The notes under the pieces were generated by a model. That model was not told the origin of the DNA. It made no database searches and saw only the letters and a program-made list of their open reading frames with translations. This document shows, in pieces, positions 1 to 25,948 of a stretch of DNA of 55,616 nucleotides. Positions within the stretch are counted from its first letter, which is position 1. Each line of letters starts with the position of its first letter. This stretch comes from a virus (Duplodnaviria > Caudoviricetes): IMG/VR virus record IMGVR_UViG_3300045242_000161, positions 1 to 55,616 of that record; one strand, 5' to 3'. Both the position numbers and the translations under genes were made by a program.

Positions 1-342
1 GTGGAGGGTACTACAGATCGTTATACGATTTGGATGATCAACGGGGCCGATAAGGTCGCCCAACAGGTGAAGATAACACTACTCGCTTTCTTTGGAGAGT
101 GGTTCCTGGATACTACGTTTGGAGTTCCCTACCTCGAAGACATTCTGGTTAAGAATCCTCACATGCCTAGCGTGGAGAGCATTCTGCGATCTCATATTCT
201 TGATGTGCCTCACGTTACTGGTCTTGTGTCATTTACTCTTACGTGGGATCGTCAAGACCGTATACTTCGTGTGGTCTTTGAAGCGACGACTGATTACGGT
301 ACTATCCAGGATTCGATCAGATTGGAGATGATGCGTGTCTGA
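1..342 (+). CDS. Baseplate wedge / sheath initiator (gp25-like), 3' part; the gene starts at 55541 and spans the circular junction
   Basis: GADKVAQQVKITLLAFFGEWFLDTTFGVPY motif; lies between spike and baseplate J genes; in frame with 55541..55616 through the 7-nt terminal overlap. Confidence 0.8.
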   Translation: MEGTTDRYTIWMINGADKVAQQVKITLLAFFGEWFLDTTFGVPYLEDILVKNPHMPSVESILRSHILDVPHVTGLVSFTLTWDRQDRILRVVFEATTDYGTIQDSIRLEMMRV

Positions 343-1804
343 TCTCGTCAATCCTCTCGACTATGGAGTCCTGCCAATAGGATTCTCGCGGATGCGGTTG
401 CCGGAGATACGGCAGGCCATCATTGATGATCTACAGCACCGCACGAAATTGACGTTTGAAACACGCCCAGATTCAATCACAGGTCAATTCATTGATGTAT
501 TCGCAGAGCGTGAGGCGACCGTATGGGAACTGGCGGAGGCTGTTTACCATGCGATGTATCCTGTTTCTGCTTTCGGTGTTAATCTGGATCACGCTGTTAG
601 TTTTGCCGGTGTCCGTCGTCTATTCGCTGAGCAGTCTCTGGCATGGGTAGTTCTCTATGGTGTAGAAGGAACGGTGGTTCCAGCCTCCTCTGTAATCCGA
701 TCGACAGATAATCAAGAGGAATTCGCCACTGTTGCTGGTGTGACTATCACCCAAACCGCAGGAGGAGATGTAACAGTATCGGTTGACACTCAGGTTGTAG
801 GGCAAGAATATTACGTGCGTCTGGATGCTACCTTCTATCGATATACTGCGGTAACAGGGGACACCAATGTCTCCATCGCAGCGAACCTTGGAGCTCTTCT
901 AATCGCATCGCGTAATGTGATTGAACTTGACGCCAACCATATTCGCATCTACACAGTTACTAACGTCCCATTTGCACTCCTGTTATCCACAGGGATCTCC
1001 ATCTTCCTTTTGGGAACACCCGCAGTTGCCCAGGCTATCAACTACGGGCCGATAGAGTCTCTTCCGCATACGCTGACGCAGATCGTCTCTACTGCTACAG
1101 GTTGGAACAGTGTTGATAACGTGGTCGCTGGACAGATTGGGCGTGACCAGGAGACGGATGATGAGCTCAGGTTGCGGTATCAGAATGGCGTTTATCGCCT
1201 CGGTGCTGCTACCCTACCAGCTATTAAGTCCAATTTAGAGCAGAACATCATTGGGCTACAGACTGTTGAAGTGTACGAGAATGTTAGTGATACAGTTGAT
1301 GCCGATGGACGATCTGCCCATAGCATTGAGGTTGTAGCCTTCGGGGGAGATCCACAAGACATCGGTGACGAGATCTTCCGCCTCAAGGCAGCAGGTATCG
1401 ACACGTATGGTGATACCCAGGTCATGGTATCCGATGTTTCCGGATACCAGCATCCCATCAACTTCAGTCGCCCTGAGCCTGTCTATGTCTGGATCAACTG
1501 CACCGTTCATCTTTACAATGAAGAAGTATTCCCACCCAATGGAAACACCGTCGTACAGCAGACGATCGTAGACACAGGTAATTCATTTGGCGTTGGTGTA
1601 GACATCATCATTCAGAGGTTCTATGGACCTATCTATACCGCCGTGTCGGGGATTGGTCAGATAGAGATCACTGTTGCAGTTGAGTCTGATGCGACGACGA
1701 CTCCTGCTGCAGGAGACTATAGTGCAGTGAACGTGCCAATCGCCGTTCGAGAGTTGGCGCGGTTTGATATCGTCCGCACATCGGTGACGGTGGTCTCTAC
1801 ATGA
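335..1804 (+). CDS. Baseplate J/gp47-like wedge protein
   Basis: GRDQETDDELRLR and GVNLDHAVSFAGVRR motifs, length, synteny. Confidence 0.9.
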   Translation: MSDLVNPLDYGVLPIGFSRMRLPEIRQAIIDDLQHRTKLTFETRPDSITGQFIDVFAEREATVWELAEAVYHAMYPVSAFGVNLDHAVSFAGVRRLFAEQSLAWVVLYGVEGTVVPASSVIRSTDNQEEFATVAGVTITQTAGGDVTVSVDTQVVGQEYYVRLDATFYRYTAVTGDTNVSIAANLGALLIASRNVIELDANHIRIYTVTNVPFALLLSTGISIFLLGTPAVAQAINYGPIESLPHTLTQIVSTATGWNSVDNVVAGQIGRDQETDDELRLRYQNGVYRLGAATLPAIKSNLEQNIIGLQTVEVYENVSDTVDADGRSAHSIEVVAFGGDPQDIGDEIFRLKAAGIDTYGDTQVMVSDVSGYQHPINFSRPEPVYVWINCTVHLYNEEVFPPNGNTVVQQTIVDTGNSFGVGVDIIIQRFYGPIYTAVSGIGQIEITVAVESDATTTPAAGDYSAVNVPIAVRELARFDIVRTSVTVVST

Positions 1805-3702
1805 GCGGAGACGATTTCAACTTCCCCCACGTCCATAGTGATGTTGCCTGGAGTCATTTCCTGTCACAACACGTGGGGAAGGTGTACACGGAAGGTTACG
1901 TCAGAGCTTTCTATCCACCGTTGGATGTTATCGACAAGGCACAATACGATCTCCTCACTCTAAGATGGCTAGAAAGTGCACAAGGAGTCCAGTTAGACGG
2001 TATCGGTAGTATCGTTGGTATCGACCGTGAACTACAGAATTCGGTCTTCCTACCTTTCTTCGGGTTCGTATCACAACCTGCTGGTAAGGGGTTCAATCAG
2101 GCGCGTATCCGACGCGATAGAGAGCCCTATGCGACAAGCCGCGTCATGGGAGACATCGAGTATCAGAAAGCGATCATCGCAAAGATCGCGCTCAACAACG
2201 CGCATGGAACAGCCAATGACATCATTGCCAATGTGAACTTCGCGCTAGGCGTGACGGGCACAACAGTGATGGACATGATGGATGCCGAAGCCTCGGTCCT
2301 GATAAATGATATGTCGATCACGACTGCGAATCCTCGGTTCTCGATAATAGATCAAGTGATACCACGAGCAGCAGGAGTAAGAATATGGCCTGAGTTAGTT
2401 AATACAGGACACATGTTCGGCTTCCAGAACCAGGGGATGTACTTTGGTTTCAATGTAGGTATACTGGCACGTCGGCCGGTGTCTAATCTTCCAATCGTAG
2501 TTGATCCTGGACTACCATCTCTTGATATCAGCTTCTTGACAGGAACTCTTGACTCTCGCATTATATTTGCGCGAGCTAGCACAGCAACTTATTATGATGT
2601 GAATGGATTAATACAAACTGTTACTGCAAATACTCCAAGATTTAGTTATGATCCTATAACTCATGCTGCTCGTGGATTGCATATAGAGGAAAACAGAACT
2701 AATCTTTTCTTGCAAAGTGGTGACTTTACTAATGCTAGTTGGACTAAAACTAACTGCACACTTGCCGCTGGAACTGCTGGTCCGAATGGCGCTACTACTG
2801 GAGTTGGTGTAATTGGCAATGCTGGTGCGACCGCTTCAATTATACAAAGCATTACATCAATAGCATCAACTACATATACGATGAGTTGTTTTGTTAAAGC
2901 TGGCACTCAAACAACAGTACAAATGTTGATGCCTGGGACTTGGTTTACTGGAGGAGTTAATCGCTTAGGCACATATGATTTAAATGCTGGGACTTCTATT
3001 CCAGGTGGAGTTGGCGCTACTTCTACAATTGTGCCTATTGGTAATGGATGGTATCGAATTAGCTTAACAGTAACCCCTGACTTAGCCGCTGCTGCTTCTC
3101 ATCAGATTGTGCGTGCCAATGCATCTGGTGATGGTGTATCTGTATTGTTTTATGCTTTTGGCGCTCAAATAGAAGCTGGGGCTTTTATTACAAGCTACAT
3201 TCCTACAACTACTGCTACTGTAGCTCGTGCAATTGAAACTACAACTATGTCTCTTGATCCCTGGTTCAATGCTGCTATCGGAACAATATCAATTGATACT
3301 TTACAGATAACAGCGAATATCAACAATAGTTGGATAGGAGACCTTGGAGACTCAACGGCGAATAATGAAATGGGATTATTCATATCAAATACTACTGGTG
3401 GTCAAGTATTGTTTCGAAATGCAGGAACCTCCATATATAATCCAACTGTAACCTCTGGCATGTATACAGCAGGCACAGCAGCTAAGTCTGCATTCTCCTG
3501 GCAGTCCATTAATGCTACTTGGGCTGTTAATGGAGTTATCCGAAACAATGCAGGAGCAGTTACAGGAACACTTCCAGTGGTTATTGCATTAACAGTTGGC
3601 AATCGTTCTGGTGGCTCTGGTCAATTAAATGGTTATGTTAGGAGGTTACAATACTGGAGGCGTGCTCTGTCTAATGCTGAACTACAATCCGTAACAACGT
3701 AA
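1801..3702 (+). CDS. Baseplate wedge protein (DUF2612/gpI-like N-terminus) fused to a fibre/lectin-like C-terminal extension
   Basis: AQGVQLDGIGSIVGIDR and FFGF motifs in first ~230 aa; then FARASTATYYD...GLHIEENRTNL...GAQIEAGAFITSYIPT typical of phage fibre/spike domains. Confidence 0.75.
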   Translation: MSGDDFNFPHVHSDVAWSHFLSQHVGKVYTEGYVRAFYPPLDVIDKAQYDLLTLRWLESAQGVQLDGIGSIVGIDRELQNSVFLPFFGFVSQPAGKGFNQARIRRDREPYATSRVMGDIEYQKAIIAKIALNNAHGTANDIIANVNFALGVTGTTVMDMMDAEASVLINDMSITTANPRFSIIDQVIPRAAGVRIWPELVNTGHMFGFQNQGMYFGFNVGILARRPVSNLPIVVDPGLPSLDISFLTGTLDSRIIFARASTATYYDVNGLIQTVTANTPRFSYDPITHAARGLHIEENRTNLFLQSGDFTNASWTKTNCTLAAGTAGPNGATTGVGVIGNAGATASIIQSITSIASTTYTMSCFVKAGTQTTVQMLMPGTWFTGGVNRLGTYDLNAGTSIPGGVGATSTIVPIGNGWYRISLTVTPDLAAAASHQIVRANASGDGVSVLFYAFGAQIEAGAFITSYIPTTTATVARAIETTTMSLDPWFNAAIGTISIDTLQITANINNSWIGDLGDSTANNEMGLFISNTTGGQVLFRNAGTSIYNPTVTSGMYTAGTAAKSAFSWQSINATWAVNGVIRNNAGAVTGTLPVVIALTVGNRSGGSGQLNGYVRRLQYWRRALSNAELQSVTT

Positions 3703-3750
3703 TGGCATGTTGGTCAGAATGTTCTGACGATACCGTAAGGAGAACAGCCA

Positions 3751-3951
3751 GTGGCTTCTAATATTGATCCGACCAAACCGACGTATGGCAAAGCCTATAC
3801 CTCTGAAGTGAGGAAGAATTTCCAGTATGCTAAAGACGAAATTGAAGAGCTTCAGAAAGGGACCTTTGCAGTGATGAATTTGCCTAAGTCAAACGCTGGT
3901 CTCCCGCCAGGTGCATTGTGGAATAATGGAGGGTTTGTATGTATCGTTTGA
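3751..3951 (+). CDS. Small virion appendage/adaptor protein with the shared SNIDPTKP N-terminal module
   Basis: RBS AGGAG before GTG; N-terminus similar to ORFs at 5842 and 6840; C-terminal LPxSxAGLPxGxLWN motif seen in fibre proteins. Confidence 0.6.
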   Translation: MASNIDPTKPTYGKAYTSEVRKNFQYAKDEIEELQKGTFAVMNLPKSNAGLPPGALWNNGGFVCIV

Positions 3952-5624
3952 TCTTCCTAGTATTCCTCCTGTGCTTCGCCAATATAGCACAGGCAGCATG
4001 TCCTGCTGTATTAACAGATTGTCCGACCATCAATGCGAATAACGGCAACTTTGGTGGGATTGTAAATTTTAGTGGGGCGTTAAAGTTAACTGGCACTGGG
4101 CAGCCTGCCAATAACGATACTAAGACACAATGGAGTTTTGCTTATACTACCACTAATCCTTTGAATGAAGGTAGGCCATTTGTTATAACTACAACTGCTG
4201 ACGTAACAGCAGCGCCTACAAGCAATGTGACTCTTGGATTTGATAGTGAATTATACACTGTTGTTGGTGTAGTGCCATTTGGTAGCACAACATTTAATCC
4301 ACAGGGCGCTGGTGGTGGTGAACACCAAAGTGCAATCTATGGCCATGGTCAATTGAGGGTCTCTCCGCCTATGTTCGGTTGCACACCTAATCTTGATTGT
4401 CCAGGAACAGTATTCGCGCAGAATGGTTTAAACGCATTTGCTGATAACATCAGCACAGCAGAATTATTCAGTGCGCGGTCTATCATCGTTCACTCTCCTG
4501 CTCCTTCTAAGTCTTTCACCAAAAATGGTTATGCTGCTGGATTTGGAGGAACCACAGATGTTTGGTCAGCTTTATCTAGTGACGATTGTATAAGTGGTCA
4601 GCAGGCTAGTCAGTGTCTTGGTATTATTATGAGTGCCAATTCTCCTTATCAGTTTAATGGATTTGGTATCGCCAATCCCGTAGCAGAAGTTCACAGCCAA
4701 TGTGGCAATCGAACTGATGCTGCGACTGGTTGGATTAGTGGCAATACACTATACCTTGCTTCGCCTCCAACCACATCACTGAACTTTGGTCCTGGAAGTA
4801 TAGTTTCTGCGCCTGGTATGGTTAATGCCCATCTTATGTCAGCCGTAAGCAGCGCGCCCGTAGCTGGAGTGACTCCTGGCGGATATAACGCATACAATAT
4901 AGATGGTGATCCTCAAACTCTTGGAAGCCAAGGAGTGCCAGTTAACTTTACATTCACTGAAACTTGTATACAATTTATAGCAAGTAATTTTTCATCTGGT
5001 GGATTAGCGACATACGGATTTATTGGTGGTGTTGGTGGGCTCCGCAATACTTTGTTGGCCAGTATCAATCAAGGAACTGTAGCTAATGTAGGAACATATA
5101 TTGATGCTCGAATTAATGAAATACCATCACTGTATATTTACGGTGCGGCTGGCGGGAGACCAGCAGGTATGGCTGTTGGATTTACTACTCCTCCATTGAC
5201 TCCTCCGCTTGATGCTTTATGGGTTAATGGTAGTGTTCAGGCAGATACTCTATGGGTTAATGCTAGTGGATTTACTTCCATTAGCACTGTTGAAAATGTT
5301 GGTATTGGCTGGGGACATAATGGAGTTCCATTCAGATTAAGCATCAAAGGAAAGGATACATCAACTACTAATGCAGTATTCATTACTGATAGTGCTGATA
5401 AGGTTATCTTCCGTATTCAAAATGATGGTCTTGTGGTGACTACAGGCAATGTCAATATTCAAGGTTCGCTTACTTTACAGAGTCCAGTTTTGGATTTAAC
5501 ACCCCATACACCAGCAACATCAGCTGAACCTTGTCTAGCAGGACAGTTCGCCACTGACATCAATTACCTGTATTCTTGCATACAATCTAATACTTGGCGT
5601 CGTGCTCCACTTACTGCTTTCTAG
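3939..5624 (+). CDS. Fibre-like beta-rich protein with predicted Sec signal peptide and 10 mature Cys
   Basis: MYRLIFLVFLLCFANIAQA/A signal-like N-terminus; GIG...RLSIKG and FRIQNDG fibre-type repeats; C-terminal TPATSAEPC..GQFATDINYLYSC..NTWRR module. Confidence 0.6.
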   Translation: MYRLIFLVFLLCFANIAQAACPAVLTDCPTINANNGNFGGIVNFSGALKLTGTGQPANNDTKTQWSFAYTTTNPLNEGRPFVITTTADVTAAPTSNVTLGFDSELYTVVGVVPFGSTTFNPQGAGGGEHQSAIYGHGQLRVSPPMFGCTPNLDCPGTVFAQNGLNAFADNISTAELFSARSIIVHSPAPSKSFTKNGYAAGFGGTTDVWSALSSDDCISGQQASQCLGIIMSANSPYQFNGFGIANPVAEVHSQCGNRTDAATGWISGNTLYLASPPTTSLNFGPGSIVSAPGMVNAHLMSAVSSAPVAGVTPGGYNAYNIDGDPQTLGSQGVPVNFTFTETCIQFIASNFSSGGLATYGFIGGVGGLRNTLLASINQGTVANVGTYIDARINEIPSLYIYGAAGGRPAGMAVGFTTPPLTPPLDALWVNGSVQADTLWVNASGFTSISTVENVGIGWGHNGVPFRLSIKGKDTSTTNAVFITDSADKVIFRIQNDGLVVTTGNVNIQGSLTLQSPVLDLTPHTPATSAEPCLAGQFATDINYLYSCIQSNTWRRAPLTAF

Positions 5625-5633
5625 GAGAGGGAA

Positions 5634-5852
5634 TTGAAACGGCTACTCATCGTGTTGGTTTCAGTTGTTAGTCATGGTGCACTGGCCCAAGATCAACAGC
5701 CAACATCAAATGAAGCTAAGGCTCTTGGTTCTATGGTTGTAGAAGCAGCACAGAGAGAAGCTCAATTGAGAGCCCAAGTATTTGCATTACAAGATGAAAT
5801 TACTCGCCTCAAGACCCAGAACAAAGTTGTGGAGAATAAGAATGGCCAGTAA
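5634..5852 (+). CDS. Small coiled-coil protein with predicted signal peptide (fibre chaperone-like or spanin-like)
   Basis: MKRLLIVLVSVVSHGALA/Q then heptad-rich helix; RBS GGAGAGG; TTG start. Confidence 0.55.
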   Translation: MKRLLIVLVSVVSHGALAQDQQPTSNEAKALGSMVVEAAQREAQLRAQVFALQDEITRLKTQNKVVENKNGQ

Positions 5853-6825
5853 TATTGATCCAACCAAGCCGAATGGACCTGTTGCGTATACCTCTGATAT
5901 GCGTACCAATTTTACGGCGGCTAAATCAGAAATAGAAGCGTTACAAGGGTCTGTTCAGAACATTCCGCCCGGAGCAATAACACTGCCATTGATGGATGGA
6001 ACTGCGACTATTGGTGTATCTACTTCTTGGGCACATGCTGATCATGTTCATCCTACAGATACCTCTAGAGCAGCAGCAACTGCTTTGGCAAGTTATCTGC
6101 CTTTGGCTGGAGGAACGGTTACTGGTAATACTACATTCAATGGAATAAACACTTTCGGCTCAGCAAACGTCTTTTCCGGAACTGGTAATGCTATTGATGT
6201 TACCAATAGTGCCAGAGTTCAAACGCTACTTAATATTGGCACTACTACAATAGGTGGTGCTATTTGGATGAATGGACCTGCTGGAAACGCTAGGTCACTT
6301 AGATGGAATACTGCAGGAGTTGTTCATTGGCAATTTGGATTGAATGCGGCTGCTGAATCTGGTGGTAATGTTGGCGCTGATATGTCATTCAGTAGATATG
6401 ATGATACTGGAGTGGCTATGGGCGCTGCTATCCAGTTCATCAGATCAACTGGATTAGTGAACATATTTAATGGCCTCTCATTAACCAGCAATACCGTTAC
6501 AACAAATACAGATAACAGTAAACATCTTGGTTTGTTCGGAACAACTGCTGGTATCAATGTCAATAATGCCTCCGCTAGACAGAATTACGTTTCTACTGGC
6601 GCGAATGCCCATTACTTCGTTGTTGGAGTTACAGACGCAATCAGTATAGATGGCACTGGTCTAAATGTAATTGTGGGTGGGGTGTCAGGACGATCCGGCG
6701 CTGCGGCTCCAACCACCGCACAATTACCTGCCGGTAAGAGTATCGTTTGGAAGAACACTACTGATGCTACTGTGAAATTGTATTACAATGATGGCGGAAC
6801 TATGCGCTCTGTAACCCTGGCCTAG
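5842..6825 (+). CDS. Tail fibre protein with the SNIDPTKP N-terminal module
   Basis: Start reassigned to ATG 5842 (RBS GGAG; paralogous N-terminus); WAHADHVHPTDTSRA and YLPLAGGTVTG fibre motifs. Confidence 0.75.
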   Translation: MASNIDPTKPNGPVAYTSDMRTNFTAAKSEIEALQGSVQNIPPGAITLPLMDGTATIGVSTSWAHADHVHPTDTSRAAATALASYLPLAGGTVTGNTTFNGINTFGSANVFSGTGNAIDVTNSARVQTLLNIGTTTIGGAIWMNGPAGNARSLRWNTAGVVHWQFGLNAAAESGGNVGADMSFSRYDDTGVAMGAAIQFIRSTGLVNIFNGLSLTSNTVTTNTDNSKHLGLFGTTAGINVNNASARQNYVSTGANAHYFVVGVTDAISIDGTGLNVIVGGVSGRSGAAAPTTAQLPAGKSIVWKNTTDATVKLYYNDGGTMRSVTLA

Positions 6826-6839
6826 TAGGAGATTATCTT

Positions 6840-7247
6840 ATGACAAGCATGATAGATCCAACCAAACCAACACAGGGATCTGCTCTTACCGCAGATGTTC
6901 GTGCCAACTTTTCTGCTGCTAAACAGGAGATTGAGTCCTTGCAGACGAGCGGTCTCGGTGGAGGTGGAGTGCAGAAAACAGACCATTCAGGATACATTAT
7001 CATGGGAGGACAGGCACAGAGTCTAATGCCTGCCAATCCTAATCGTCGTGGCTGGTCATTCCAAAACAAGTCGCTCTCCGACATGTATTTCAATGATCTT
7101 GGAACTGCTGCTGATCCGGCGCTCGCCAATTCCGTTTATCTCCCACCAGGAGCATATTATGAGAGTGAAATAGGAGGTGCCTCTGTAGCCGCCATTTCAC
7201 TTTACGGTTCACAGACATTCGCTAACTTTGTAGCGAAGGAGTGGTAA
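6840..7247 (+). CDS. Small beta-sandwich appendage protein with the IDPTKP N-terminal module
   Basis: RBS AGGAG; PANPNRRGWSFQNKS pattern typical of small phage jelly-roll proteins. Confidence 0.6.
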   Translation: MTSMIDPTKPTQGSALTADVRANFSAAKQEIESLQTSGLGGGGVQKTDHSGYIIMGGQAQSLMPANPNRRGWSFQNKSLSDMYFNDLGTAADPALANSVYLPPGAYYESEIGGASVAAISLYGSQTFANFVAKEW

Positions 7248-7248
7248 G

Positions 7249-8277
7249 ATGCCGATTTCTTATCCCTCCTATCGGTTAAATGCTCTTGAGTTTTCTGGTG
7301 GGTCTATATTGACTTTGGGTACTATTACTCCTGGCTCTGGATATGCTGATGGAGTTCATCCTAATGTGTCGTTGATGGGCGGTGCTGGCAAAGGAGCCAT
7401 AGCTACTGTCACTGTTTCGGGAGGAGCAGTAACCGCAGTTGTATTAACAAATCCAGGAGGAAATGTTACTTCAACAGGATGTGTTGGTTATTTCCCTGGT
7501 GACGTTCTTACAATAACTAGCACGGGTGGTGGAACCGGCTTCTCTATTCCTGTGCTAACAGTCAACAATAGTTATCAGTGGCAGGTTCCTCAAGGACTGA
7601 GCCTAATTCTTATGGATGCTTGCGGTGCTGGCGGTGGCGGTGGTGCTGGCGGACCTTCTACTGCTGGTGGTGGTGGAGGAGGATCAGGCGCTTCTTTGAT
7701 AGGTTTCCCAGTAACTGTTGCTCCAGGTGCCATACTTATTCTTACTCCAGGACTACCTGGGTCTGCAGGTGTGTTCAACGGCAACATTGCTACTGCTGGC
7801 GGTGATAGTATATTCTCAGGAACAATAACACCTCAACCCGTATTAACTGGAGGGCTCCCTGGCCAGCCAGGAGTGGCGGGTGTTGGTGGAACGTCTGGTG
7901 ATGGCGGTGGAATTTATCATGGTTTTGGAGCAGCAGCAGGGGCAACTCCTGCTAGTCCAGGAACAATCATGCCAGGCTTTTATATGGGTGGTTCTGGTGG
8001 TGGGGGCGGCGGCTCTACTGCTACTCCTGGTGCTGTGGGCGCTGGTCCTGGACCGTATCAAGGCAATTCGCCTGGGGGTGGAACCGGCAGTGGTGGCGGT
8101 GGAGCTAAAACTCCTTGGGGTAAAGGCGGACTTGGTGGTAATGGTATAGGTGGAACTAATCCTACATCAGCAGGAAGTAATGTAGTTTCTGATGGTTGGG
8201 GCGGCGGTGGTGCTGGAGGAGGTCCAGGATTCAATGGTAGTGCGGGCCATTCTGGTTGGTTCCGGTTGAGGTTCTAA
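7249..8277 (+). CDS. Glycine-rich domain virion/adhesin protein
   Basis: Many GGGGG tracts, GAGGGGG...GGGGGSG pattern, ends GHSGWFRLRF. Confidence 0.7.
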   Translation: MPISYPSYRLNALEFSGGSILTLGTITPGSGYADGVHPNVSLMGGAGKGAIATVTVSGGAVTAVVLTNPGGNVTSTGCVGYFPGDVLTITSTGGGTGFSIPVLTVNNSYQWQVPQGLSLILMDACGAGGGGGAGGPSTAGGGGGGSGASLIGFPVTVAPGAILILTPGLPGSAGVFNGNIATAGGDSIFSGTITPQPVLTGGLPGQPGVAGVGGTSGDGGGIYHGFGAAAGATPASPGTIMPGFYMGGSGGGGGGSTATPGAVGAGPGPYQGNSPGGGTGSGGGGAKTPWGKGGLGGNGIGGTNPTSAGSNVVSDGWGGGGAGGGPGFNGSAGHSGWFRLRF

Positions 8278-8278
8278 T

Positions 8279-9634
8279 ATGTATACATCACTCGGTAATG
8301 GTCCGCCTCCACCAATACATACTCCATTTTTGAATCCTGAGGTGCATATCTCTGCCGGTCAATCTTGGCGCGGAGTATTTAAATCTGGTGTCTCTATTAC
8401 TTCAATGGGATGGAATTCACAGACCCAAACTACACTTACTCTGGGATTCACTCATCCATTCTATTTGAGTGGTGTGCTCTATACTTCTTCTGGTATCGGC
8501 ATCCCTAACAACGGAAAGTTCACTGGTATTCGCGGATACACTCCTGATATGCTGTGGCCTATGCCTCCTCCATCATCCTCAATTGATACGTCTAACGCAA
8601 CAACATTCGGACGGTCGGCAGTACTGGCTTTGCAGTTACTTCGTATGGCGAATAACAGGTTCATGAATCCTATCATTGAATACTGTATGCTGTGTCCTGG
8701 AAGTTCTTGGGTAGAAAGTCCCGCCAATGGGTGCGGTGGATTAGGGCCCGGAAGTGCGCCTTGGATTAATATGCATACGATCAATGACCAGATTATCAAC
8801 AAATTACTTCCCAGCAGTTTCGCTAGGTTGAATAAGGCAACATTTCGATCAGTAGGATGGACACAAGGCGGTTCTCTTGATCTATCATCGCCTCAAAAGA
8901 CTATTGATGAATGGTCAGATATGACATATCAATACGATATGTTGTTCCTACCCGGAACCGACACCAAACCGCTAAACTTCTACTTAGGGATACGCGCCCC
9001 AAATTCAAATGATACTGTTGCGACTAATGCAGTAATTGGAGCTTGGCAATTCGTTCGCACCAATCAAAACGGAAGAACAATAGGAACCTCTCCATGGTAT
9101 CAATGGAAGTTCAACGGAGGCGATGGCATTCACACAGATATCTATGGCGTAATGCGAGAAGGGGAATTTGAAGGTCTAGCCAAATACATTACAGAAGATG
9201 AAGGTGTATTCTTTAAACCGCTATGGAGGTCATTGACTCTGCCAATTACAATTACAGGACAAACAATTACTATACCATTCGACAGGCCCACTGGGAGTTT
9301 CTTCACCAATTCTCAGATGCTCTGGATGGCAGAAGATGAAGATGGTCCCAAGGAGTGGCCCCAGAAAGGCTTCCATGTTTTACGTGGAACAACTGAACTG
9401 ACCGTTACACCTGTAATCTCTGGTATGAATGTCGTGCTAACTATTACGGAACCTATTCGTACTGGAGATTCATTGGAAGTTTCATACGCGTATCGCGGAC
9501 CAGGAGGACCATCCATTAGTTTCTATACGGGTGTTGGCGGTAACTTAACCATACCTGGACCGCCATCGCAGTTGTTTCCTGGCAAGATCATTAACTCTTG
9601 GGCATGGCCTTTCATGGAAATGGTGACGGTATGA
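8279..9634 (+). CDS. Putative SGNH-type carbohydrate esterase (sialate O-acetylesterase-like) virion protein
   Basis: AGQS (block I), WTQG (block III-like) and DGIH (block V) motifs in the expected order. Confidence 0.5.
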   Translation: MYTSLGNGPPPPIHTPFLNPEVHISAGQSWRGVFKSGVSITSMGWNSQTQTTLTLGFTHPFYLSGVLYTSSGIGIPNNGKFTGIRGYTPDMLWPMPPPSSSIDTSNATTFGRSAVLALQLLRMANNRFMNPIIEYCMLCPGSSWVESPANGCGGLGPGSAPWINMHTINDQIINKLLPSSFARLNKATFRSVGWTQGGSLDLSSPQKTIDEWSDMTYQYDMLFLPGTDTKPLNFYLGIRAPNSNDTVATNAVIGAWQFVRTNQNGRTIGTSPWYQWKFNGGDGIHTDIYGVMREGEFEGLAKYITEDEGVFFKPLWRSLTLPITITGQTITIPFDRPTGSFFTNSQMLWMAEDEDGPKEWPQKGFHVLRGTTELTVTPVISGMNVVLTITEPIRTGDSLEVSYAYRGPGGPSISFYTGVGGNLTIPGPPSQLFPGKIINSWAWPFMEMVTV

Positions 9635-9849
9635 GTGATCTTCCAGAAGCCTCAGAACCTATTCCGGGCAACACACAGATGGCGCTCGATGAAGGTTACA
9701 TGCCTGACATAGATGGATTCCGTCTATTTTGTAAGAGTAAGATTGAGGAGCAAAACATTTCACTACACTACCGCTCAACTGCTCTGGCTAAGATGGATGA
9801 GATGATCTTGGCGATCAAGCTGGGATTGGAGGAGAAGGCTAATGTCTGA
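9631..9849 (+). CDS. Hypothetical protein
   Basis: ATGA-coupled to upstream gene; overlaps start of next gene. Confidence 0.5.
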   Translation: MSDLPEASEPIPGNTQMALDEGYMPDIDGFRLFCKSKIEEQNISLHYRSTALAKMDEMILAIKLGLEEKANV

Positions 9850-11584
9850 TTCTATCAAGAACGATATCACGATCACAGTTACTGGGTCTATTGACTTTAG
9901 TGGCACGGTCGATGCAGAGTTCATTGTGACGTTGCCTGATACTCCTCCGCCGACACCTGAACCGACACCACCACCTACACCAGAGCCTACTCCTCCACCA
10001 ATACCTTCGGCGGATACACTAATTGTCGAACTCACCTACCAGGGCAAGGTGTACCTATTTGATGAAAGTTTTGGGATTGATTTAGGTGATTATGTAGAAC
10101 CGGGCGGGCACTTCGTTCAATTGTGTATGCTGACTACACATCCTGAGCTCCCTGGTTTCCGCGTAATGTTCCGCCCGGACAGCAGTGGACAACGCGAAGA
10201 AATTGTATTTGAACTCGGCATGCTACACTCTGGCACACCTGTTAATATGGTGGACTATACAGTAGTAATCAAGCGTGCCGATCAGACGGTGACTACAATA
10301 CAGGCACCGTGCCATTACTGGAACTCGCGTTGGCGGTGGCAGTCAGCACCAAGACCCATCATCTACCCTGTAGATGATTTGTTGGGTAACCTACTGCCTA
10401 TGTACAGTGAAGATTTGTTCGGTAGTAAACTTCCCCTGTCGTTACCGCGTCAATATCTCGGTCCGATGGATCTGGCGGGCATCCAACCCTACATCCCATC
10501 AACTGGCGAGAGAGACGAGATCGGCATCTGCACAGAAGGGCAGGCAGAATACCTGTGCCAAAGAACGACAACCGCCTGGAGTTCTGTACAGGCGTGGCTC
10601 GAAGCGTCGGGTACGATACCTTGGCACTTCCGCGATGAGAAAACCAACGCCCCTATCGACGTGAATGAGTATCCTCAAGCAACGATGTATGGATCGTCTG
10701 GCGATCCCTTGATCAAGAATCCAACATCACCTATCACCTTGGATGTTTCACACATGGGATCGTTTGCCTATGTTCCCTTCGTCCTAACTGGTGATCCGTA
10801 TGCATTGGAAGAAATGCAGTTCTATACGACATACAGTATAATAATGCAATCGCCTAGTGCACGCCAGAACTGGAACCTCGGCAATGCGGTCAGAGCAGTT
10901 GCATGGTCGTTGCGCGCTCTGATGCATAACGCAACGGTTACTCCTGATGAAATCCCTTCTTGGTTGAAGTCGAAACAGTATTTCAAAACACTGCTCGACC
11001 AGGAACGTGACTGGTTCATGAGTAGATTCGTCAATGCTACTACTGCACCGTTTAACAATCTCAATTTGGTGAGTGATGGTAAGGGTGGACCTGCATCACC
11101 TCCGCTTCCACCGGATACCTATGTCAGCGTATGGATGGAGGACTTCCTGACGGCCGTGTTGGGTTGGATCGTTCAACTAGGCCATAATGACTGGTTGCCT
11201 ATACTGCAGTGGAAAGCCGCCGACGCTGTAGCCAGAACTAGCGGTAAGTCGGGATGGGTGCGAGCCGTTCCTACCATGTATCAAATGGCTATCAAATTGG
11301 ATACCAATGCACAGGTAGCCTACGATTGGGGTGCGTGTTGGGAAGCCAACGAACGACTACAGCCAACCAAGTGTGAATACGCGGACAAAGATATCATGCC
11401 AACCACCGTCAGTTTGACGTATCCTTCATATATGTTGGGGTCACTTGGACTGGCTGCGCCCGTGGGAATTGCGGATGCCCCAGAATGTTATGAGTGGCTC
11501 CTTGAGCAGATACAACATAACACCACCAACAATAGTTATATTCGGAGAAGATGGGCAGTTGCTACTGGTCCGGTTTCTGTTTAG
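9842..11584 (+). CDS. Large protein: short N-terminal segment, Pro-rich linker, then putative alpha/alpha-toroid glycan-active domain
   Basis: RBS GGAGGAG; PPPTPEPTPPPTPEPTPPP linker; aromatic-rich helical region AYVPFVLTGDPYALEEMQF...RAVAWSLR. Confidence 0.5.
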   Translation: MSDSIKNDITITVTGSIDFSGTVDAEFIVTLPDTPPPTPEPTPPPTPEPTPPPIPSADTLIVELTYQGKVYLFDESFGIDLGDYVEPGGHFVQLCMLTTHPELPGFRVMFRPDSSGQREEIVFELGMLHSGTPVNMVDYTVVIKRADQTVTTIQAPCHYWNSRWRWQSAPRPIIYPVDDLLGNLLPMYSEDLFGSKLPLSLPRQYLGPMDLAGIQPYIPSTGERDEIGICTEGQAEYLCQRTTTAWSSVQAWLEASGTIPWHFRDEKTNAPIDVNEYPQATMYGSSGDPLIKNPTSPITLDVSHMGSFAYVPFVLTGDPYALEEMQFYTTYSIIMQSPSARQNWNLGNAVRAVAWSLRALMHNATVTPDEIPSWLKSKQYFKTLLDQERDWFMSRFVNATTAPFNNLNLVSDGKGGPASPPLPPDTYVSVWMEDFLTAVLGWIVQLGHNDWLPILQWKAADAVARTSGKSGWVRAVPTMYQMAIKLDTNAQVAYDWGACWEANERLQPTKCEYADKDIMPTTVSLTYPSYMLGSLGLAAPVGIADAPECYEWLLEQIQHNTTNNSYIRRRWAVATGPVSV

Positions 11585-11595
11585 GAGTCATGTGA

Positions 11596-12657
11596 ATGCC
11601 AGCTAATTGGTTCAACCGCTTCACGAAATGGTGGGCTTCGAGCGGCACACTGCAAGATCCTTCGGATACGCAGGCTGCCGCTGGCTGGTCCTTCATCGGC
11701 CAGGCCCCACCGACTGTAGAGCAGTTTAATTCCGTCCAGCAGTGGAACGACCAGAAGGATAACTACCTCTTCAATCAGATTGGGAGCGTATTAACTTGGG
11801 GTGGTCAAACAGCAACTGATACTAACCCCAATACACTACGCGATGCTATTAGCGGTAAGATGAAGATTGTGCTTACTGCATCTACCAATTACTATGTTGA
11901 TCTAGCTGGTAATGATTCTACTGGAAATGGAACGGTTGGTAATCCTTGGAGAACAATACAATTTGCTGTTAATTGGATAACAAATCACATTGATGCTGCT
12001 GGTTGGCAAGTCAACATTCAGTTGAAGACTGCGGGAACTTATGCTCAAGCCTATTTTGGTATTCCAATTAACGGCAATTTTATAATTACTGGAGACAAAC
12101 TTAATCCAAGAAACTATATTGTCAAAAATCTTGATGGGCCTGCTGTAGTAGCTACCCAAAGTGCTGTTGTTATCTTAATAGGCATTTCATTAGAAGCAAC
12201 TGGACAAGCCACAGGAGCACCAGATTATAAGACTGTAGGACACGGAATATATGCTGCTCGTGGGGCTGTTATTTATTATGATGCTGTTGCATTGGGCCCT
12301 TGCACTCATGTTCAAATGGTGGCTGAGACTGGAGCGGTTATATTTCCACTTAATGGTTTATCAACTACACTGAGTGCTTATGGCGGAGGTCAATCTTTTG
12401 CCACTGCTAATGCCGGTGGTGCTGTAGTATTGCAATCAATTCCAACTACATTTACTGGCACTGTCAATTATACTGCTGCTACCGTTCAAGCATCCCAAGC
12501 AGGAACTATAAATGCAATAGCCTGGGCTCCTACAGGAACTGTTACTGGTCCTAAATGGAGTGTATTTCTTAATGGCGTTTTGATAACAAATGTTGCTGGT
12601 GCTAATATTCCAGGCAGCACAGCAGGACAAGTAGTCTCTGGCGGTCAACTACAATAG
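11596..12657 (+). CDS. Main tail fibre/tailspike (baseplate-anchor N-terminus, beta-helix-like C-terminus)
   Basis: AAAGWSFIGQAPPTVEQFNSVQ anchor motif; YYVDLAGNDSTGNGTVGNPWRTIQFAV beta-helix cap. Confidence 0.75.
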   Translation: MPANWFNRFTKWWASSGTLQDPSDTQAAAGWSFIGQAPPTVEQFNSVQQWNDQKDNYLFNQIGSVLTWGGQTATDTNPNTLRDAISGKMKIVLTASTNYYVDLAGNDSTGNGTVGNPWRTIQFAVNWITNHIDAAGWQVNIQLKTAGTYAQAYFGIPINGNFIITGDKLNPRNYIVKNLDGPAVVATQSAVVILIGISLEATGQATGAPDYKTVGHGIYAARGAVIYYDAVALGPCTHVQMVAETGAVIFPLNGLSTTLSAYGGGQSFATANAGGAVVLQSIPTTFTGTVNYTAATVQASQAGTINAIAWAPTGTVTGPKWSVFLNGVLITNVAGANIPGSTAGQVVSGGQLQ

Positions 12658-12670
12658 TAGGAGAACAAAC

Positions 12671-12847
12671 ATGTCTGATAAGCAGAACGATGAAGTTGTT
12701 ACGCCTCCGAATGTAGGTGTAATGTCAGCTGATATGTCAGTTCCTGATCAAGTCAGAGCGGACATAGAAGCATTACTTGAACAAGCAAATATAGAGATGG
12801 GGAGGACTCCCGCTGCCGGCCAGGAGCAATCTGGCAAACGTGACTGA
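12671..12847 (+). CDS. Hypothetical 58-aa protein (not in ORF track)
   Basis: Hand translation MSDKQNDEVVTPPNV...GKRD; RBS AGGAG. Confidence 0.55.
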   Translation: MSDKQNDEVVTPPNVGVMSADMSVPDQVRADIEALLEQANIEMGRTPAAGQEQSGKRD

Positions 12848-13043
12848 AGAACAACGAGGCATCTCTGGTCTTGCTAATAAAGTAATAGGCTCTTTACCAG
12901 CCCAATTTTTAATGCTGATACTGATCAACATGATATTCATAGGCGGTCTAATTTGGTTTCTTGATCGTAGAGACAGTGCCAGAGAACGTATGCTCATCCC
13001 CATACTTGCCGCCTGCCTGAAAGGAGGTAGTCCAATTCAATGA
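12840..13043 (+). CDS. Single-TM membrane protein, possible holin
   Basis: One hydrophobic helix (FLMLILINMIFIGGLIWFL), charged C-terminus, end of late operon. Confidence 0.45.
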   Translation: MTEEQRGISGLANKVIGSLPAQFLMLILINMIFIGGLIWFLDRRDSARERMLIPILAACLKGGSPIQ

Positions 13044-13153
13044 AACCCTTCCCATGCACATGTATATTTCGTATGGGCGTGTGTATATGTGACTCGCGTG
13101 ACTATCCAATTCCACAGAAGTCGAAACAAGGATTCGCTACCTGCTAGGTTTCC

Positions 13154-13194
13154 CTTGCAAATAGGTATCCTTTCCTTAATATAAGGATGCCTAT
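13154..13194 (+). promoter_or_regulatory. Candidate sigma70 promoter for the PEP-CTERM gene, overlapped by a 12-bp inverted repeat
   Basis: CTTGCAA-N16-TAATAT; arms ATAGGTATCCTT (13161-13172) and AAGGATGCCTAT (13183-13194), one mismatch. Confidence 0.4.
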
Positions 13195-13237
13195 GAGGAG
13201 CGTGCATGCCGCCTACTAACGCGTATGGAGATGACAA

Positions 13238-13885
13238 ATGACTAAGTACCTGCTCGCCTCAGTCGCCCTGTTCGGCCTGGCCACCACACAGGCCAACGCT
13301 GCACTCATCGCGTCGTTCAGTCAGAACCCGTCAGCTACCCCAACCGTCAATGCTACTGATAACGGCACGACAACCAACATCACCATTGGCAGTGTTTCCA
13401 CCAGCGTCACGGCCGGTGCCAATGTTGTGCCGAATGCGTTCTTCTCCCTAGCCGCCACCAGCATCGACGCCGCCGTCCAGATTGGTGCAGCCGTGATCCA
13501 GCACTACAACGGTAACTTCTGCATCACCTCGGCGGCCGGTTGCGGAGGCACCAACTTCCTCTCAGGCGTGTTCTCCGACGCAGCATTCGGTGCACTGGGC
13601 GGTCCCGGCCTGGCCGTGAACGTCAACAATCCGCCCGACACTTTGACGTTGACATCGTCGGTGGTCCCGGCATCGAGCCTCCAACCGCCATCGGCGTTCA
13701 ACCTGGGCTTCGTCGATCTGGCGCCCTTGCTGCATATCGACGGTAGCACCATCGCGGCGTTCACTGCCGACTTCGCAGGTAACGTGTCGTCCTCCGTCGA
13801 GGCACCCGAGCCAATGTCGATCGCCCTACTCGGCATGGGCCTGGTCGGCATCGGGATGGTCCGTTACCGCCACAAGAACGGATAG
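13238..13885 (+). CDS. PEP-CTERM sorting-domain surface protein
   Basis: Signal peptide ending ANA/A; C-terminal APEPMSIALLGMGLVGIGMVRYRHK (PEP, TM helix, basic tail). Confidence 0.9.
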   Translation: MTKYLLASVALFGLATTQANAALIASFSQNPSATPTVNATDNGTTTNITIGSVSTSVTAGANVVPNAFFSLAATSIDAAVQIGAAVIQHYNGNFCITSAAGCGGTNFLSGVFSDAAFGALGGPGLAVNVNNPPDTLTLTSSVVPASSLQPPSAFNLGFVDLAPLLHIDGSTIAAFTADFAGNVSSSVEAPEPMSIALLGMGLVGIGMVRYRHKNG

Positions 13886-17830: not shown

Positions 17831-19776
17831 TTCGAGTCTCCCCAGGTTGCGGCTACTTTACTATCGACAACAACAGGTATCTCCAACTGCACACAGTCTT
17901 CCATGATCGAGGCCTGTTCCCGTGCTACCCTCTCACTGGTTACCGAGAATCCAAGCGCGTCGTGTTCCGTGATCAGCGGTAGGTGACCGGCACGATAGCA
18001 GTTGACCATAGCCTGCTTCGTTTGATCCGCTGCCGATCCCTGAATCCGTCTATTGAGCGCCTTATTCAGGAACATATACTCACCGCCTCGCATAGGGAAG
18101 CGGCATCTGCGGTTGTATATGGTGGTGATGTAACCGAGCTGCTTAACCATCGTCTGAGCATCTCTAGCCAAAGGCTGGACGAATGGCACACGTTCATAGA
18201 ATCTATCGAGCAGGGCTTGGCCCTCGGTTCCAGCAACTTCGACGGTTCGACCATTGATCACTTTATGGGTGGTAGGTAGACCTAATTCATGGCAGAGTTT
18301 AGCACCGCCCATGCCGTATGTAATGCCCAAGAATATCGTCTTGGCGTGTTGGCGGGAAATGCCGCCCATCCATTTGGCACACATACCGTGATAGTCGGTT
18401 CGTGGATTCTCGTTGAAGATCTTAACTGCTTCCGCGGCCCCGCGTAACCGCAATATAGACGCGTAGTGCAAGGATAGCCGCGGCTCCTGTGATGAATAAT
18501 CGGCATTGTGCCACAATTCACCTTCTTCCGGCAACATGAGACAGCGGACTAGTTTCTTGATCTCTTCATCGCGCGATGGCAGTTGTTGAAAGTTCGGGTT
18601 AGACGATGAGAACCGGCCCGTAACAGTGCCGTAACCGCTTCCATCGTCATCTTCGCGTCGTAGAGGATGAAACTCAGGGTGGATTCGTCCGTTCTTGACA
18701 TGGCGGAATACATGTCCGTCGATGAAGGTGGTCCTCGCCTTGTTGTATCTCCGCAGTTCCAGTATGTCTCCAATGACGGAGGATTGTGTGGCGTTTTCTT
18801 CAAGCCAATTCTTCTGGACGGAGGGTTTGTCCGTCTTGGTCCGAGGTAAGGAGATGCCGGCCTGTACACAGGCTCGCGCGATCGTCTCATTCTCCCACGC
18901 CGATACGAGGACTCCTGTGGCATTTTGAATACGCCTGATGCAGTCGAGTTCTTTGTTTTGGAGTTTGATCCTTGCCTGTTCCGCTGCATCGAGATCAACA
19001 CGAACGCCGCGCATACGCATCGCCACACAGACGGTGATGACATCACGCTCTAGGTCTGCGAGCTCTTTCAGCCCTTGTTGAGCGATCTGCGGTTTGAAGA
19101 AGTCGTATAGTCTCAGGGCTAGAGTCGCGTCCATCTCGGCATACGGCCCAACGTACTTGGCAGGCAATCTCCAGAGATTGTCGTATATATTTTTGACGCC
19201 GTAACCCCCGGCAACCTTCTGTAGGAGAGAGTCGTCTTTGCCAACCCCAAGGATATCCTTGGAGAGATTGTCCAGGGAGTATGACAGACGGTTCTCGTCC
19301 AGGAGAGCGGCGAGACCTTGTACGTCAACCGCACCATTGTAAGGTCTGATCCCCATACGGTTGCACCAGCCCAGGTCGTAAAGCGAATTGGCGGCAACCA
19401 TCTGCACATTAGATCTACCCAACTGCTCACGGAGCCAGGCGATTACGTCTCCGTCGAAGTTGCCTTCGGGATGACGAATCGCGTAATAGGCCGATCGACC
19501 ACAGGAAGCCACCGCAACTCCGATTGGGTAATCGTCAGCGGTTGGGAAGGCCCAAGCACTACCGACTGTTGTAAGGGTGGTATCTCGGGTTTCCCAGTCA
19601 ATTGCGGTTACTCCTTCTATCGGGATGAATTCCGTAGGTGGCACCCAGTTAGACTCATAGTTAGGCGTGATCATTCCCTTGGGCTCGAATAGCGTTGTGC
19701 CGCCCACCGTTGGGCGTGTCGCGGTCCTGACAGGAGTGCGTGTGGGTTTGGCTGGTTCGTCCCAGAAAAGATTCAT
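17827..19776 (-). CDS. polA: Family A DNA polymerase with 3'-5' exonuclease
   Basis: AIDWET exo I, YAEMDA exo III, TGRFSSSNPNFQQLP, ADYSSQEPR motif A, RQHAKTIFLGITYGMG motif B, EHDA motif C. Confidence 0.95.
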   Translation of the reverse strand: MNLFWDEPAKPTRTPVRTATRPTVGGTTLFEPKGMITPNYESNWVPPTEFIPIEGVTAIDWETRDTTLTTVGSAWAFPTADDYPIGVAVASCGRSAYYAIRHPEGNFDGDVIAWLREQLGRSNVQMVAANSLYDLGWCNRMGIRPYNGAVDVQGLAALLDENRLSYSLDNLSKDILGVGKDDSLLQKVAGGYGVKNIYDNLWRLPAKYVGPYAEMDATLALRLYDFFKPQIAQQGLKELADLERDVITVCVAMRMRGVRVDLDAAEQARIKLQNKELDCIRRIQNATGVLVSAWENETIARACVQAGISLPRTKTDKPSVQKNWLEENATQSSVIGDILELRRYNKARTTFIDGHVFRHVKNGRIHPEFHPLRREDDDGSGYGTVTGRFSSSNPNFQQLPSRDEEIKKLVRCLMLPEEGELWHNADYSSQEPRLSLHYASILRLRGAAEAVKIFNENPRTDYHGMCAKWMGGISRQHAKTIFLGITYGMGGAKLCHELGLPTTHKVINGRTVEVAGTEGQALLDRFYERVPFVQPLARDAQTMVKQLGYITTIYNRRCRFPMRGGEYMFLNKALNRRIQGSAADQTKQAMVNCYRAGHLPLITEHDALGFSVTSERVAREQASIMEDCVQLEIPVVVDSKVAATWGDSK

Positions 19777-21432: not shown

Positions 21433-21441
21433 GTATTCCTC

Positions 21442-23136: not shown

Positions 23137-23160
23137 AGGAAGATCCTCAGTTGCCTGAGG

Positions 23161-23190
23161 ATCCTAGCGTAATTCTGCCAAATACGCAAG
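23161..23190 (-). promoter_or_regulatory. Phage promoter family copy (queF-dpdA-clamp-queE-pol operon)
   Basis: CTTGCGT-N17-TAGGAT. Confidence 0.7.
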
Positions 23191-23197
23191 CCCAGGA

Positions 23198-24266: not shown

Positions 24267-24300
24267 TTGGTACTCCTTGAATATAACGTGCAGATGAGCT

Positions 24301-24330: not shown

Positions 24331-24331
24331 A

Positions 24332-25937: not shown

Positions 25938-25948
25938 GTGAACCTCCC

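Follow-up and report, generated by a model that had tools for sequence, protein, structure and literature searches.

The tail-fibre cluster of the phage genome IMGVR_UViG_3300045242_000161 (called the window in the following: the entire record, 55,616 bases on one contig) contains two neighbouring open reading frames (ORFs), of 561 and 72 amino acids (aa), whose products are very probably both exported, judging from their sequences and from those of their relatives. The larger ORF encodes a fibre-like protein, the mature part of which features five neighbouring pairs of cysteines; the smaller one encodes a coiled-coil protein, likely a periplasmic helper of the first. Both lie downstream of a 66-aa stub fibre, and stub and large protein may be seen as the parts of a two-piece fibre, where the distal, receptor-binding part would be exported by Sec, oxidised in the periplasm and joined to the virion at lysis. 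For this reading, which is drawn from sequence comparison, we hold the balance to be even.

Predicted signal peptides on two neighbouring ORFs

The large ORF (3939-5624, + strand) starts with an ATG located 5 nucleotides (nt) 3' of GGAGGG. Its product begins with the n-region MYR, followed by a hydrophobic h-region of 14 residues, LIFLVFLLCFANIA, and then by QA/A, where the slash, here and below, marks the predicted cleavage site. The original prediction described this N-terminus as a classical signal peptide, with n-, h- and c-regions (n/h/c) and cleavage at AQA/A: coordinates, frame, n/h/c organization and AxA pattern are all correct. The second ORF opens with a TTG, located after GGAGAGGG, and reads MKR, LLIVLVSVVS, HGALA/Q. 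Signal character was scored by a heuristic of our own, based on n/h/c organization and on positions -3 and -1, which is uncalibrated and is not SignalP. Only 26 of the 317 genome ORFs of at least 50 aa pass, and the 561-aa and 72-aa ORFs take ranks 1 and 2 (scores 6.54 and 6.06). The third rank (4.96) is taken by a PEP-CTERM protein, a known exported type. The presence of predicted signal peptides on two neighbouring ORFs exceeds chance.

Among the relatives of the 561-aa protein, signal character is kept in 13 out of 18 (P0001-P0018), with the AxA site retained. The five that fail comprise four fragments or truncated starts and one upstream extension: P0009, P0010 and P0013 are fragments, P0005 begins within the region that follows the signal in P0004, and P0015 contains a segment, MRTILRIILLALTVGTAHA/QG, behind an extension of 36 residues. 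The sequence of the h-region varies from relative to relative, while the n/h/c and AxA pattern stays; remote relatives retain the signal although 90-260 fibre-like residues separate it from the family domain. The conservation, amid this drift, of a charged n-region, an h-region of 10-14 residues and small residues at -3 and -1 indicates a signal peptide, rather than a structural helix.

A true start downstream of the hydrophobic stretch would remove the signal. The codons that lead from this stretch to the conserved mature N-terminus (15-21, GCC AAT ATA GCA CAG GCA GCA), however, include no start codon, so that a start 3' of the signal would remove conserved sequence too. A lipoprotein signal was also considered for this ORF and rejected: a lipobox reads [LVI][ASTVI][GAS]C, with the cysteine at +1, and none is found here, C21 being preceded by Q-A-A (the -3 residue is H, R, E or S in relatives).

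The 72-aa putative exported helper

For the smaller ORF, the claim of a coiled coil behind a signal peptide (ALA/Q) holds as well, given its rank in the heuristic and a model featuring a single helix. AlphaFold2, run on an alignment of 16 rows, predicts one helix at residues 25-70, with a predicted local distance difference test (pLDDT) of 94-97 over residues 31-60. The heptad core is formed by L31, A38, L45, L52, L59 and V66, and by V35, E42, V49, I56 and N63. The gene starts 10 nt past the stop codon of the 561-aa ORF and extends beyond the ATG (5842) with which the next fibre gene begins. It is found directly 3' of a 561-aa-type gene also in four viral loci (L001, L002, L003, L004).

Database searches provide 15 relatives, and across the 16 sequences the mature helix hardly changes (26 invariant columns). 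The signal part does vary, yet the basic start, the hydrophobic core and A-x-A/Q are kept, and 14 of the 15 relatives pass the heuristic. The fifteenth, P0079, comes from the window itself, as the source gene call of this ORF; being started from an internal GTG (66 aa, beginning with VLVSVV), it lacks the n-region; relatives begin with ATG where the window has the TTG at 5634. Annotation pipelines may thus hide the signal of the helper, as does the source gene call, which starts at the internal GTG.

No chaperone family of Pfam, PHROG or NCBIfam matches the helper above cut-off or at E <1e-3; its matches consist of two weak coiled-coil ones in Pfam and a weak one in PHROG, with none in NCBIfam. 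In genome_contigs, the collection of representative bacterial and archaeal genomes, no genuine relative is found: a match in an Acidobacteria metagenome-assembled genome was discarded as a chance QREAQLRAQ within a WD40-like protein. Two other identities were considered and rejected. A lipoprotein is excluded by the absence of cysteines from the 72-aa ORF. A Rz-like spanin does not agree with an h-region of only 10 residues followed by AxA, with the lack of an embedded or adjacent lipoprotein ORF, or with neighbours that are fibre genes.

A 67-aa signal-bearing protein, encoded at 3914-4117 of L019/L020, follows a different type of large protein (mature N-end SCPATPTDCGSP) and looks, by eye, like a distant relative of the helper (ALG..., RE.Q, LE.E..LKA).

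Cysteine pairs and body of the 561-aa protein

Apart from C12, located in the signal, the cysteines of the large protein are found at positions 21, 28, 148, 154, 217, 226, 255, 343, 532 and 547. The mature part therefore contains exactly ten, which form neighbouring pairs, as first described. Three regions may be distinguished: residues ~60-430 correspond to the domain that defines the family, stapled by cysteines, residues 430-520 to a fibre-shaft repeat, and residues 523-561 to a C-terminal tail-protein motif, which includes C532-C547 (phrog_17312, "tail protein", E 9e-5). The baseplate neighbours, the shaft repeat and this motif indicate that the protein is probably a fibre.

The co-variation of cysteines was scored in an alignment of 16 sequences. 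C148 and C154 are present in all 16; C217 and C226 are both cysteines in 10 and both replaced in the other 6; C255 and C343, which bracket an inserted small beta-barrel, occur together in 7 and are jointly missing from 9. A single member of any of these three pairs is never seen.

A word-index search finds eight relatives, all metagenomic, with identities of 35-91% (most are 55-62% identical, one 91% and one 35%). An exhaustive profile search returns 72 matches: the main domain is covered by P0006, P0008 and P0010-P0018, while the remaining matches mainly fall in the shaft region, with their best stretches within profile positions 391-575. The shaft repeat is common to 60 fibre-like proteins, and the 60 shaft-region matches (P0019-P0078) were used as a contrast set. 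The heuristic is passed by four of them, convincingly only by P0053, which contains 6 cysteines; 54 of the 56 that fail contain 0-2. The median number of cysteines per 100 aa is 0.16 in the 56 signal-less proteins versus 1.5 in 15 signal-bearing ones (Mann-Whitney p=3e-8, a value not corrected for relatedness: many of the 56 are akin to each other, and their independence is overstated). The other fibre-like proteins of the window contain 0-3 cysteines, with the exception of a 580-aa one (9842-11584), which has 7. The co-occurrence of a signal and paired cysteines is as expected of proteins folding in an oxidising compartment.

The hydrophobic N-terminus might be given a different meaning: the protein would be a cytoplasmic fibre, its N-terminal helix buried at the junction with the stub, and the cysteines would oxidise only after release. 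In all cases studied, the cytoplasm is where the parts of tailed phages are made, and the N-terminus of the 561-aa protein does sit right at the stub junction. Yet an h-region of 10-14 residues is too short for a membrane span, its features are kept amid drift, and the richness in cysteines goes with the signal. Moreover, the neighbouring small protein shares the signal features, P0011 and its relative in viral locus L011 also precede a small signal-bearing protein, and in L017 the next gene encodes a twin-arginine-like signal. A fibre retained in the cytoplasm is improbable on this evidence, and export of both proteins is the reading followed below.

Structural searches add little on the large protein. 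Its AlphaFold2 monomer, obtained with a 16-row alignment, has a mean pLDDT of 45.5, and only the barrel at 255-343 is confident (55-87). The barrel is also the only part matched in a fold search: the matches are small beta-barrels, including insert domains of phage tailspikes, with Z up to 6.3, which is in the noise range. A search of the ESM Atlas provides phage fibre-like clusters as leads only (scores <=0.84, TM <0.5). Pfam and NCBIfam contain no family for either the 561-aa ORF or the 66-aa stub, and a search of PDB sequences with the large protein gives no relative at E up to 1. No match is found by tblastn in 50,697 phage records for the 561-aa protein, for the large protein of L019 or for P0014; genome_contigs contain no relative of the 561-aa protein, and viral contigs, searched with the single remote relatives P0016 and P0096, give no match.

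The upstream stub and the order of genes

The stub starts with a GTG, after AAGGAG, and has no signal. Its N-terminal module, MASNIDPTKP...EIEELQ, is common to the fibres starting at 5842 and 6840, while its C-terminal tail reads LPKSNAGLPPGALWNNGGFVCIV, immediately before the stop codon (pattern LP.S..GL..G.LWNNGG..C.., then the stop). Twelve positions are invariant in six aligned tails: G37, P45, S47, G50, L51, G54, W57, N58, N59, G60, G61 and C64. The ATG of the 561-aa ORF lies 12 nt before the end of the stub, whose stop codon straddles codons 4 and 5 of the large ORF.

The same order, namely a stub or fibre with the WNNGG tail, a signal-bearing large protein and a signal-bearing helper, is found in L001 and L003, two IMG/VR contigs of high GC content, and in L004, which contains the 91% relative. 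In L002 the contig is truncated, so that the start of the large protein is missing, and the helper follows. In L005, the upstream protein is a full fibre of 549 aa with the WNNGG tail, and the contig ends inside the large ORF.

A search of viral contigs with the stub alignment provides 25 loci with a WNNGG tail, at the end of upstream ORFs ranging from 68 to 861 aa. The 25 are partly redundant: L014 and L031 are contigs of L003 and L001, respectively, L018-L021 are near-identical, and L025-L028 identical. A partner ORF that passes the signal heuristic follows in 13 of them; two are not judgeable, because the contig ends. The start of the partner precedes the end of the upstream stop codon by 12-13 nt; exceptions are L031 (33 nt before) and L032 (11 nt after). 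Partners range from 148 to more than 835 aa and, where complete, contain 4-16 cysteines. When the tail has a cysteine three residues from its end, a signal-bearing partner is present in all judgeable loci (8 out of 8); when this cysteine is lacking, in 5 out of 15. Since the tail is found also on fibres with no partner, while all judgeable tails of the cysteine type are partnered, the tail may be seen as a general fibre end, the cysteine-type variant of which goes with an exported partner.

The overlap could also suggest that stub and 561-aa ORF are joined by programmed -1 frameshifting, which would make the hydrophobic stretch internal, and, compared with the stub, the large ORF does occupy the -1 frame in the window, L001 and L003. 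The fusion was rejected, as it is most improbable: a TAA at 3924-3926, in the frame of the large ORF, leaves only four open codons before the ATG, no slippery site of the type X XXY YYZ is present, and the junction varies between loci. The ATG has, in addition, its own ribosome-binding site, GGAGGG, and the partner in L032 starts 11 nt after the stop.

Some related loci show further arrangements. In L004 (3490-3755), the helper is followed by a second stub of 70 aa, ending with WNNGGVLCVV and a stop, and by an overlapping second signal ORF (MRRLIYVIFALLATPVAA/QNSTT), cut by the contig end; the corresponding position in the window holds the one-piece fibre of 327 aa. In L017 (3009-4538), the signal-bearing partner of 148 aa is followed by an ORF of 509 aa, which begins with MRRRDLVSGAVAVAAMA, similar to a twin-arginine (Tat) signal; export in the folded state may therefore also be used in these cassettes. 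L011 (1-8460) is a viral contig including a 94% relative of P0011, with signal, fibre motifs, family domain and Gly-rich end, followed by a signal-bearing protein of 153 aa (MKRVTLATVLGAMFVPTIAMA/Q) and by a homing-endonuclease-like gene. The next ORFs read as tail sheath, tube and tape measure, from their translations and with no family library; the layout of the tail module is different, the exported pair is the same.

A mature N-peptide shared by unrelated bodies

The ~20-25 residues past the cleavage site (ACPAVLTDCP.INAN.G.FGG; in the window, ACPAVLTDCPTINANNGNFGG) are a portable part of the large protein. Their amino acid sequence is kept, through many synonymous changes, in loci ranging from 44% to ~65% GC. 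It is conserved between the window (44% GC here) and the high-GC L003 and L005, despite a different h-region and an identity of just 35% over the remainder of the protein. When the 561-aa protein is compared with the partners in L016 (489 aa) and L017 (148 aa), only the N-terminal residues align: residues 1-43 with the former (58% identity, E 3e-12) and 1-48 with the latter (56% identity, E 9e-15). The N-peptide is thus borne by three unrelated bodies. That of L016 matches an annotated tail fibre protein of the Burkholderia phages Bcep43 and Bcep781 (38% over 97 aa, E 8e-6). The CX6C loop recurs in L013-L017, and again in the form SCPATPTDC in L018-L021 and in the form CPTYPSAC in P0011.

A constant N-end on exchangeable bodies behaves as the attachment modules of fibres do, and the N-peptide is therefore proposed as a candidate module for docking on the stub. 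A complex prediction, performed with no controls on three copies of the stub and three of residues 20-140 of the 561-aa protein, scores 0.00 and speaks neither way.

A proposed two-piece fibre and a rival exported factor

The original prediction had inferred an exported, oxidatively folded appendage, which either joins virions at or after lysis or acts as a decoy of the receptor at the cell surface. Export and oxidative folding are supported by the comparison of relatives, since the signal is conserved amid drift, the AxA is kept, cysteine pairs co-vary and a high cysteine content tracks the signal. Between virion part and decoy, gene order leans towards the former, because of the coupling to the 66-aa stub and of the presence of the N-peptide on unrelated bodies. 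The wording "cell-surface" turns out to be less apt, as a Sec signal alone delivers only to the periplasm of Gram-negative bacteria.

In the two-piece fibre, the stub would be made in the cytoplasm and seated on the baseplate. The 561-aa protein would be translated by coupling, from the ATG overlapping the stub stop, cross the inner membrane via Sec and be cut after AQA by signal peptidase I. The mature protein would then fold in the periplasm, probably assisted by the 72-aa coiled-coil helper in a role like that of Tfa/gp38-type chaperones for cytoplasmic fibres, and five disulfides would be formed there by the host Dsb system. After the opening of the envelope by holin and endolysin, the distal piece, by then oxidised, would meet the finished particle and, through its mature N-peptide, dock on the foldon-like tail of the stub. 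Fibre addition is, in T4, the last and a spontaneous step of assembly. For a 66-aa protein composed of nothing but docking module and tail, the only use that suggests itself is as an adaptor; this, the order of genes and the portability of the N-peptide argue for docking on the virion.

Two extensions of this mechanism may be considered. Assembly in two compartments may be a modular trait of many uncultured phages, with exchangeable exported tips that snap onto the WNNGG..C tail of a stub no earlier than the opening of the inner membrane by the holin, a view to which we give slightly less than an even chance. It is improbable, instead, that the invariant C-terminal cysteine of the stub attacks the CX6C loop of the partner, forming a covalent latch.

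Several points weigh against the two-piece fibre. No tailed phage is known to add a Sec-exported part to its particle. The phage also encodes a PEP-CTERM surface protein, and therefore exports proteins that are not part of the virion. No holin, endolysin or spanin is recognised in the whole genome, so that the lysis step is assumed. The poor model of the 561-aa protein provides neither a usable trimer fold nor Cys-Cys distances. Ten of the 25 loci with a WNNGG tail lack a signal-bearing partner, and none accompanies the tail in the cultured Vibrio phage AS51, where a 558-aa protein ends with it; the helper, in turn, is missing after the partner type of 485-489 aa (L015, L016, L023). Finally, the DNA of stub tail and N-peptide is adjacent and their frames overlap: this alone could explain why they travel together, and their joint inheritance is no independent evidence of contact.

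A different fate of the exported pair is that it stays out of the virion and, during infection, acts within the host periplasm or from it. It might mask the receptor, excluding later phages and sparing the progeny from debris, or else bind or cut polysaccharides of the envelope or slime, making release easier. Signal and disulfides support this as much as they support a two-piece fibre, and exported proteins that block receptors, encoded beside receptor-binding genes, are a known theme. The PEP-CTERM protein is a clear case of non-virion export, and the extreme conservation of the helper helix, compared with 55-62% identity in most relatives of the large protein, would fit a conserved host target.

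Such a factor, however, gives no purpose to a 66-aa stub with a baseplate-type N-module, and leaves unexplained both the invariable overlap of the gene with a fibre or stub stop and the occurrence of one mature N-peptide on unrelated bodies. At the same position where the 91% relative has a stub and a signal ORF, the window has a one-piece fibre in their place. A Sec signal gives no placement at the cell surface, and a receptor-binding protein set free at lysis would compete with the progeny. The gene also lies within the late tail operon: promoter-like and terminator-like sites over 1-13500 are not commoner than in shuffled sequence, which is weak evidence. An exported factor with no part in the virion is, on the whole, rather unlikely, and the two-piece fibre is retained as the preferred reading.

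Genomic context

The window corresponds to a complete contractile-tailed phage, of the structural type of Pam3/E217/KPP10. It encodes terminase, portal, a Mu-F-like protein, major capsid, cement and neck proteins; a DUF3383 sheath-type protein, tube, tail chaperone, tape measure and a Dit-like protein; hub and spike of the baseplate, with Baseplate_J and DUF2612 proteins. The terminase is nearest to those of the Rhizobium phages RHph_TM3_3_3 and RHph_N28_2 (53-54% identity), and a GcrA-like protein is encoded. Since the phage carries a PEP-CTERM protein, a GcrA-like protein and a Rhizobium-like terminase, its host would be Gram-negative, have an exosortase system and possibly belong to the Alphaproteobacteria.

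The localization of the cassette and of its neighbours is reported in Table 1. Fibre-like genes run on from the baseplate genes up to 12657. The Gly-rich domain found downstream of the cassette is fused, in the relatives P0008, P0010 and P0011, to the signal-bearing family.

Table 1. Localization of the cassette, of its parts and of neighbouring genes in the window; strand and remarks are given where available.
Feature	Position	Strand	Remarks
Baseplate_J	335-1804		upstream of the 561-aa ORF
DUF2612 gene	1801-3702		upstream of the 561-aa ORF
Stub fibre, 66 aa	3751..3951	+	GTG start; no signal
Predicted signal peptide of the 561-aa protein	3939..3995	+	residues 1-19; predicted cleavage AQA/A
Mature fibre-like body, 542 aa	3996..5624	+	three regions
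Conserved mature N-peptide	3996..4064	+	CX6C loop C21-C28; candidate docking module
Inserted small beta-barrel	4701..4967	+	residues 255-343, bracketed by C255 and C343
Likely helper, 72 aa	5634..5852	+	predicted signal at residues 1-18 (ALA/Q); mature part a single heptad helix of 46 residues
One-piece fibre, 327 aa	5842..6825	+	no signal; 0 Cys; N-module as in the 66-aa stub
135-aa protein	6840..7247	+	third protein with the shared N-module
Gly-rich domain protein	7249-8277		after the 135-aa protein; Gly_rich_2 E 3.9e-4, below cutoff

The stretch 2400-6800 has a GC content of 40-45%, versus ~50% genome-wide. It runs from the DUF2612/LamG-like protein, of which it takes in the C-terminal half, through the cassette and the next fibre, and its low GC fits a mosaic, exchanged host-range region. 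The 580-aa protein of the fibre cluster (9842-11584, + strand), already mentioned for its 7 cysteines, belongs to no known family, features a Pro-rich repeat (TPPPTPEPTPPPTPEPTPPPIPS) and has no signal peptide.

The PEP-CTERM protein (13238-13885, + strand; 215 aa) has a signal peptide (ANA/A) and a C-terminal motif formed by PEP, a hydrophobic stretch and RYRHK. It scores 16.7 bits with TIGR02595 (cutoff 16), and weakly matches the flocculation protein PepA (E 4.9e-8, below its cutoff). That a phage should encode an exosortase substrate suggests that its host is Gram-negative and forms flocs or slime, and that the surface of this host is remodelled.

Two more observations concern other parts of the genome. 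Directly after the baseplate spike gene, a hydrophobic DUF3309 protein of 56 aa is encoded (55374-55544, + strand; E 1e-5, above cutoff). On the - strand, the region 19773-29973 contains a full 7-deazaguanine set (GTP cyclohydrolase I, PTPS/QueD, QueC, a radical-SAM QueE-like protein, a QueF-like protein and phrog_887, a tRNA-guanine-transglycosylase/DpdA-like protein), interspersed with genes for an amidoligase and for a GGACT protein: these genes suggest that the phage DNA is modified.

Comparison with known systems

Tailed-phage assembly is, according to textbooks, wholly cytoplasmic. The fibres of T4 (gp34-gp37, with gp38/gp57A), P2 (H/G) and Mu (S/U) resemble the cassette in several respects: their genes come after baseplate genes of the J/I type, an N-terminal attachment module is combined with exchangeable distal parts, a small helper gene is located directly downstream, and fibres are added late to finished particles. 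They differ in that fibres and helpers have no signal peptide and few cysteines, and are assembled in the cytoplasm, while in the phage described here both distal piece and helper carry predicted Sec-type signals and the distal piece has five cysteine pairs. Searches of the full-text literature provide no description of Sec-exported tail fibres in tailed phages.

Exported proteins that block receptors are found in the host-recognition gene cluster of other tailed phages, virulent or temperate: Llp of T5 and Cor of T1, phi80 and N15. Those of T5, T1 and phi80 act by masking the receptor or by occupying it. Both Llp and Cor are small lipoproteins, while here there is no lipobox, and a large protein is built from fibre modules. 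The pIII protein of filamentous phages is, like the putative distal piece, a Sec-exported, receptor-binding protein with periplasmic disulfides, which is part of the virion; inoviruses, however, are extruded through the envelope, while this phage has terminase, portal, sheath and baseplate.

The MAT adhesins of Bdellovibrio bacteriovorus are described as phage-fibre-like trimers that begin with a signal peptide, followed by a conserved N-proximal domain, and differ at their tips (PMC10769870). To the extent of that description, such fibres can fold after export, which supports the feasibility of the mechanism proposed here. They are cellular proteins, located on the predator's own surface or vesicle, with no phage tail operon and no coupling to a baseplate stub; no sequence relation to the proteins of this phage is seen.

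If the pair turned out to be an exported factor, it would represent a new, large, fibre-derived class of exported phage factors. If the two-piece fibre is true, modular host-recognition proteins routed through Sec would add a periplasmic branch to tail assembly, and infectivity would depend on the Sec and Dsb systems of the host and on the timing of lysis. Such proteins would misfold when expressed in the cytoplasm, which matters for the production and engineering of receptor-binding proteins. The same route would also explain the presence, in soil phages, of receptor-binding tips hardened by disulfides.

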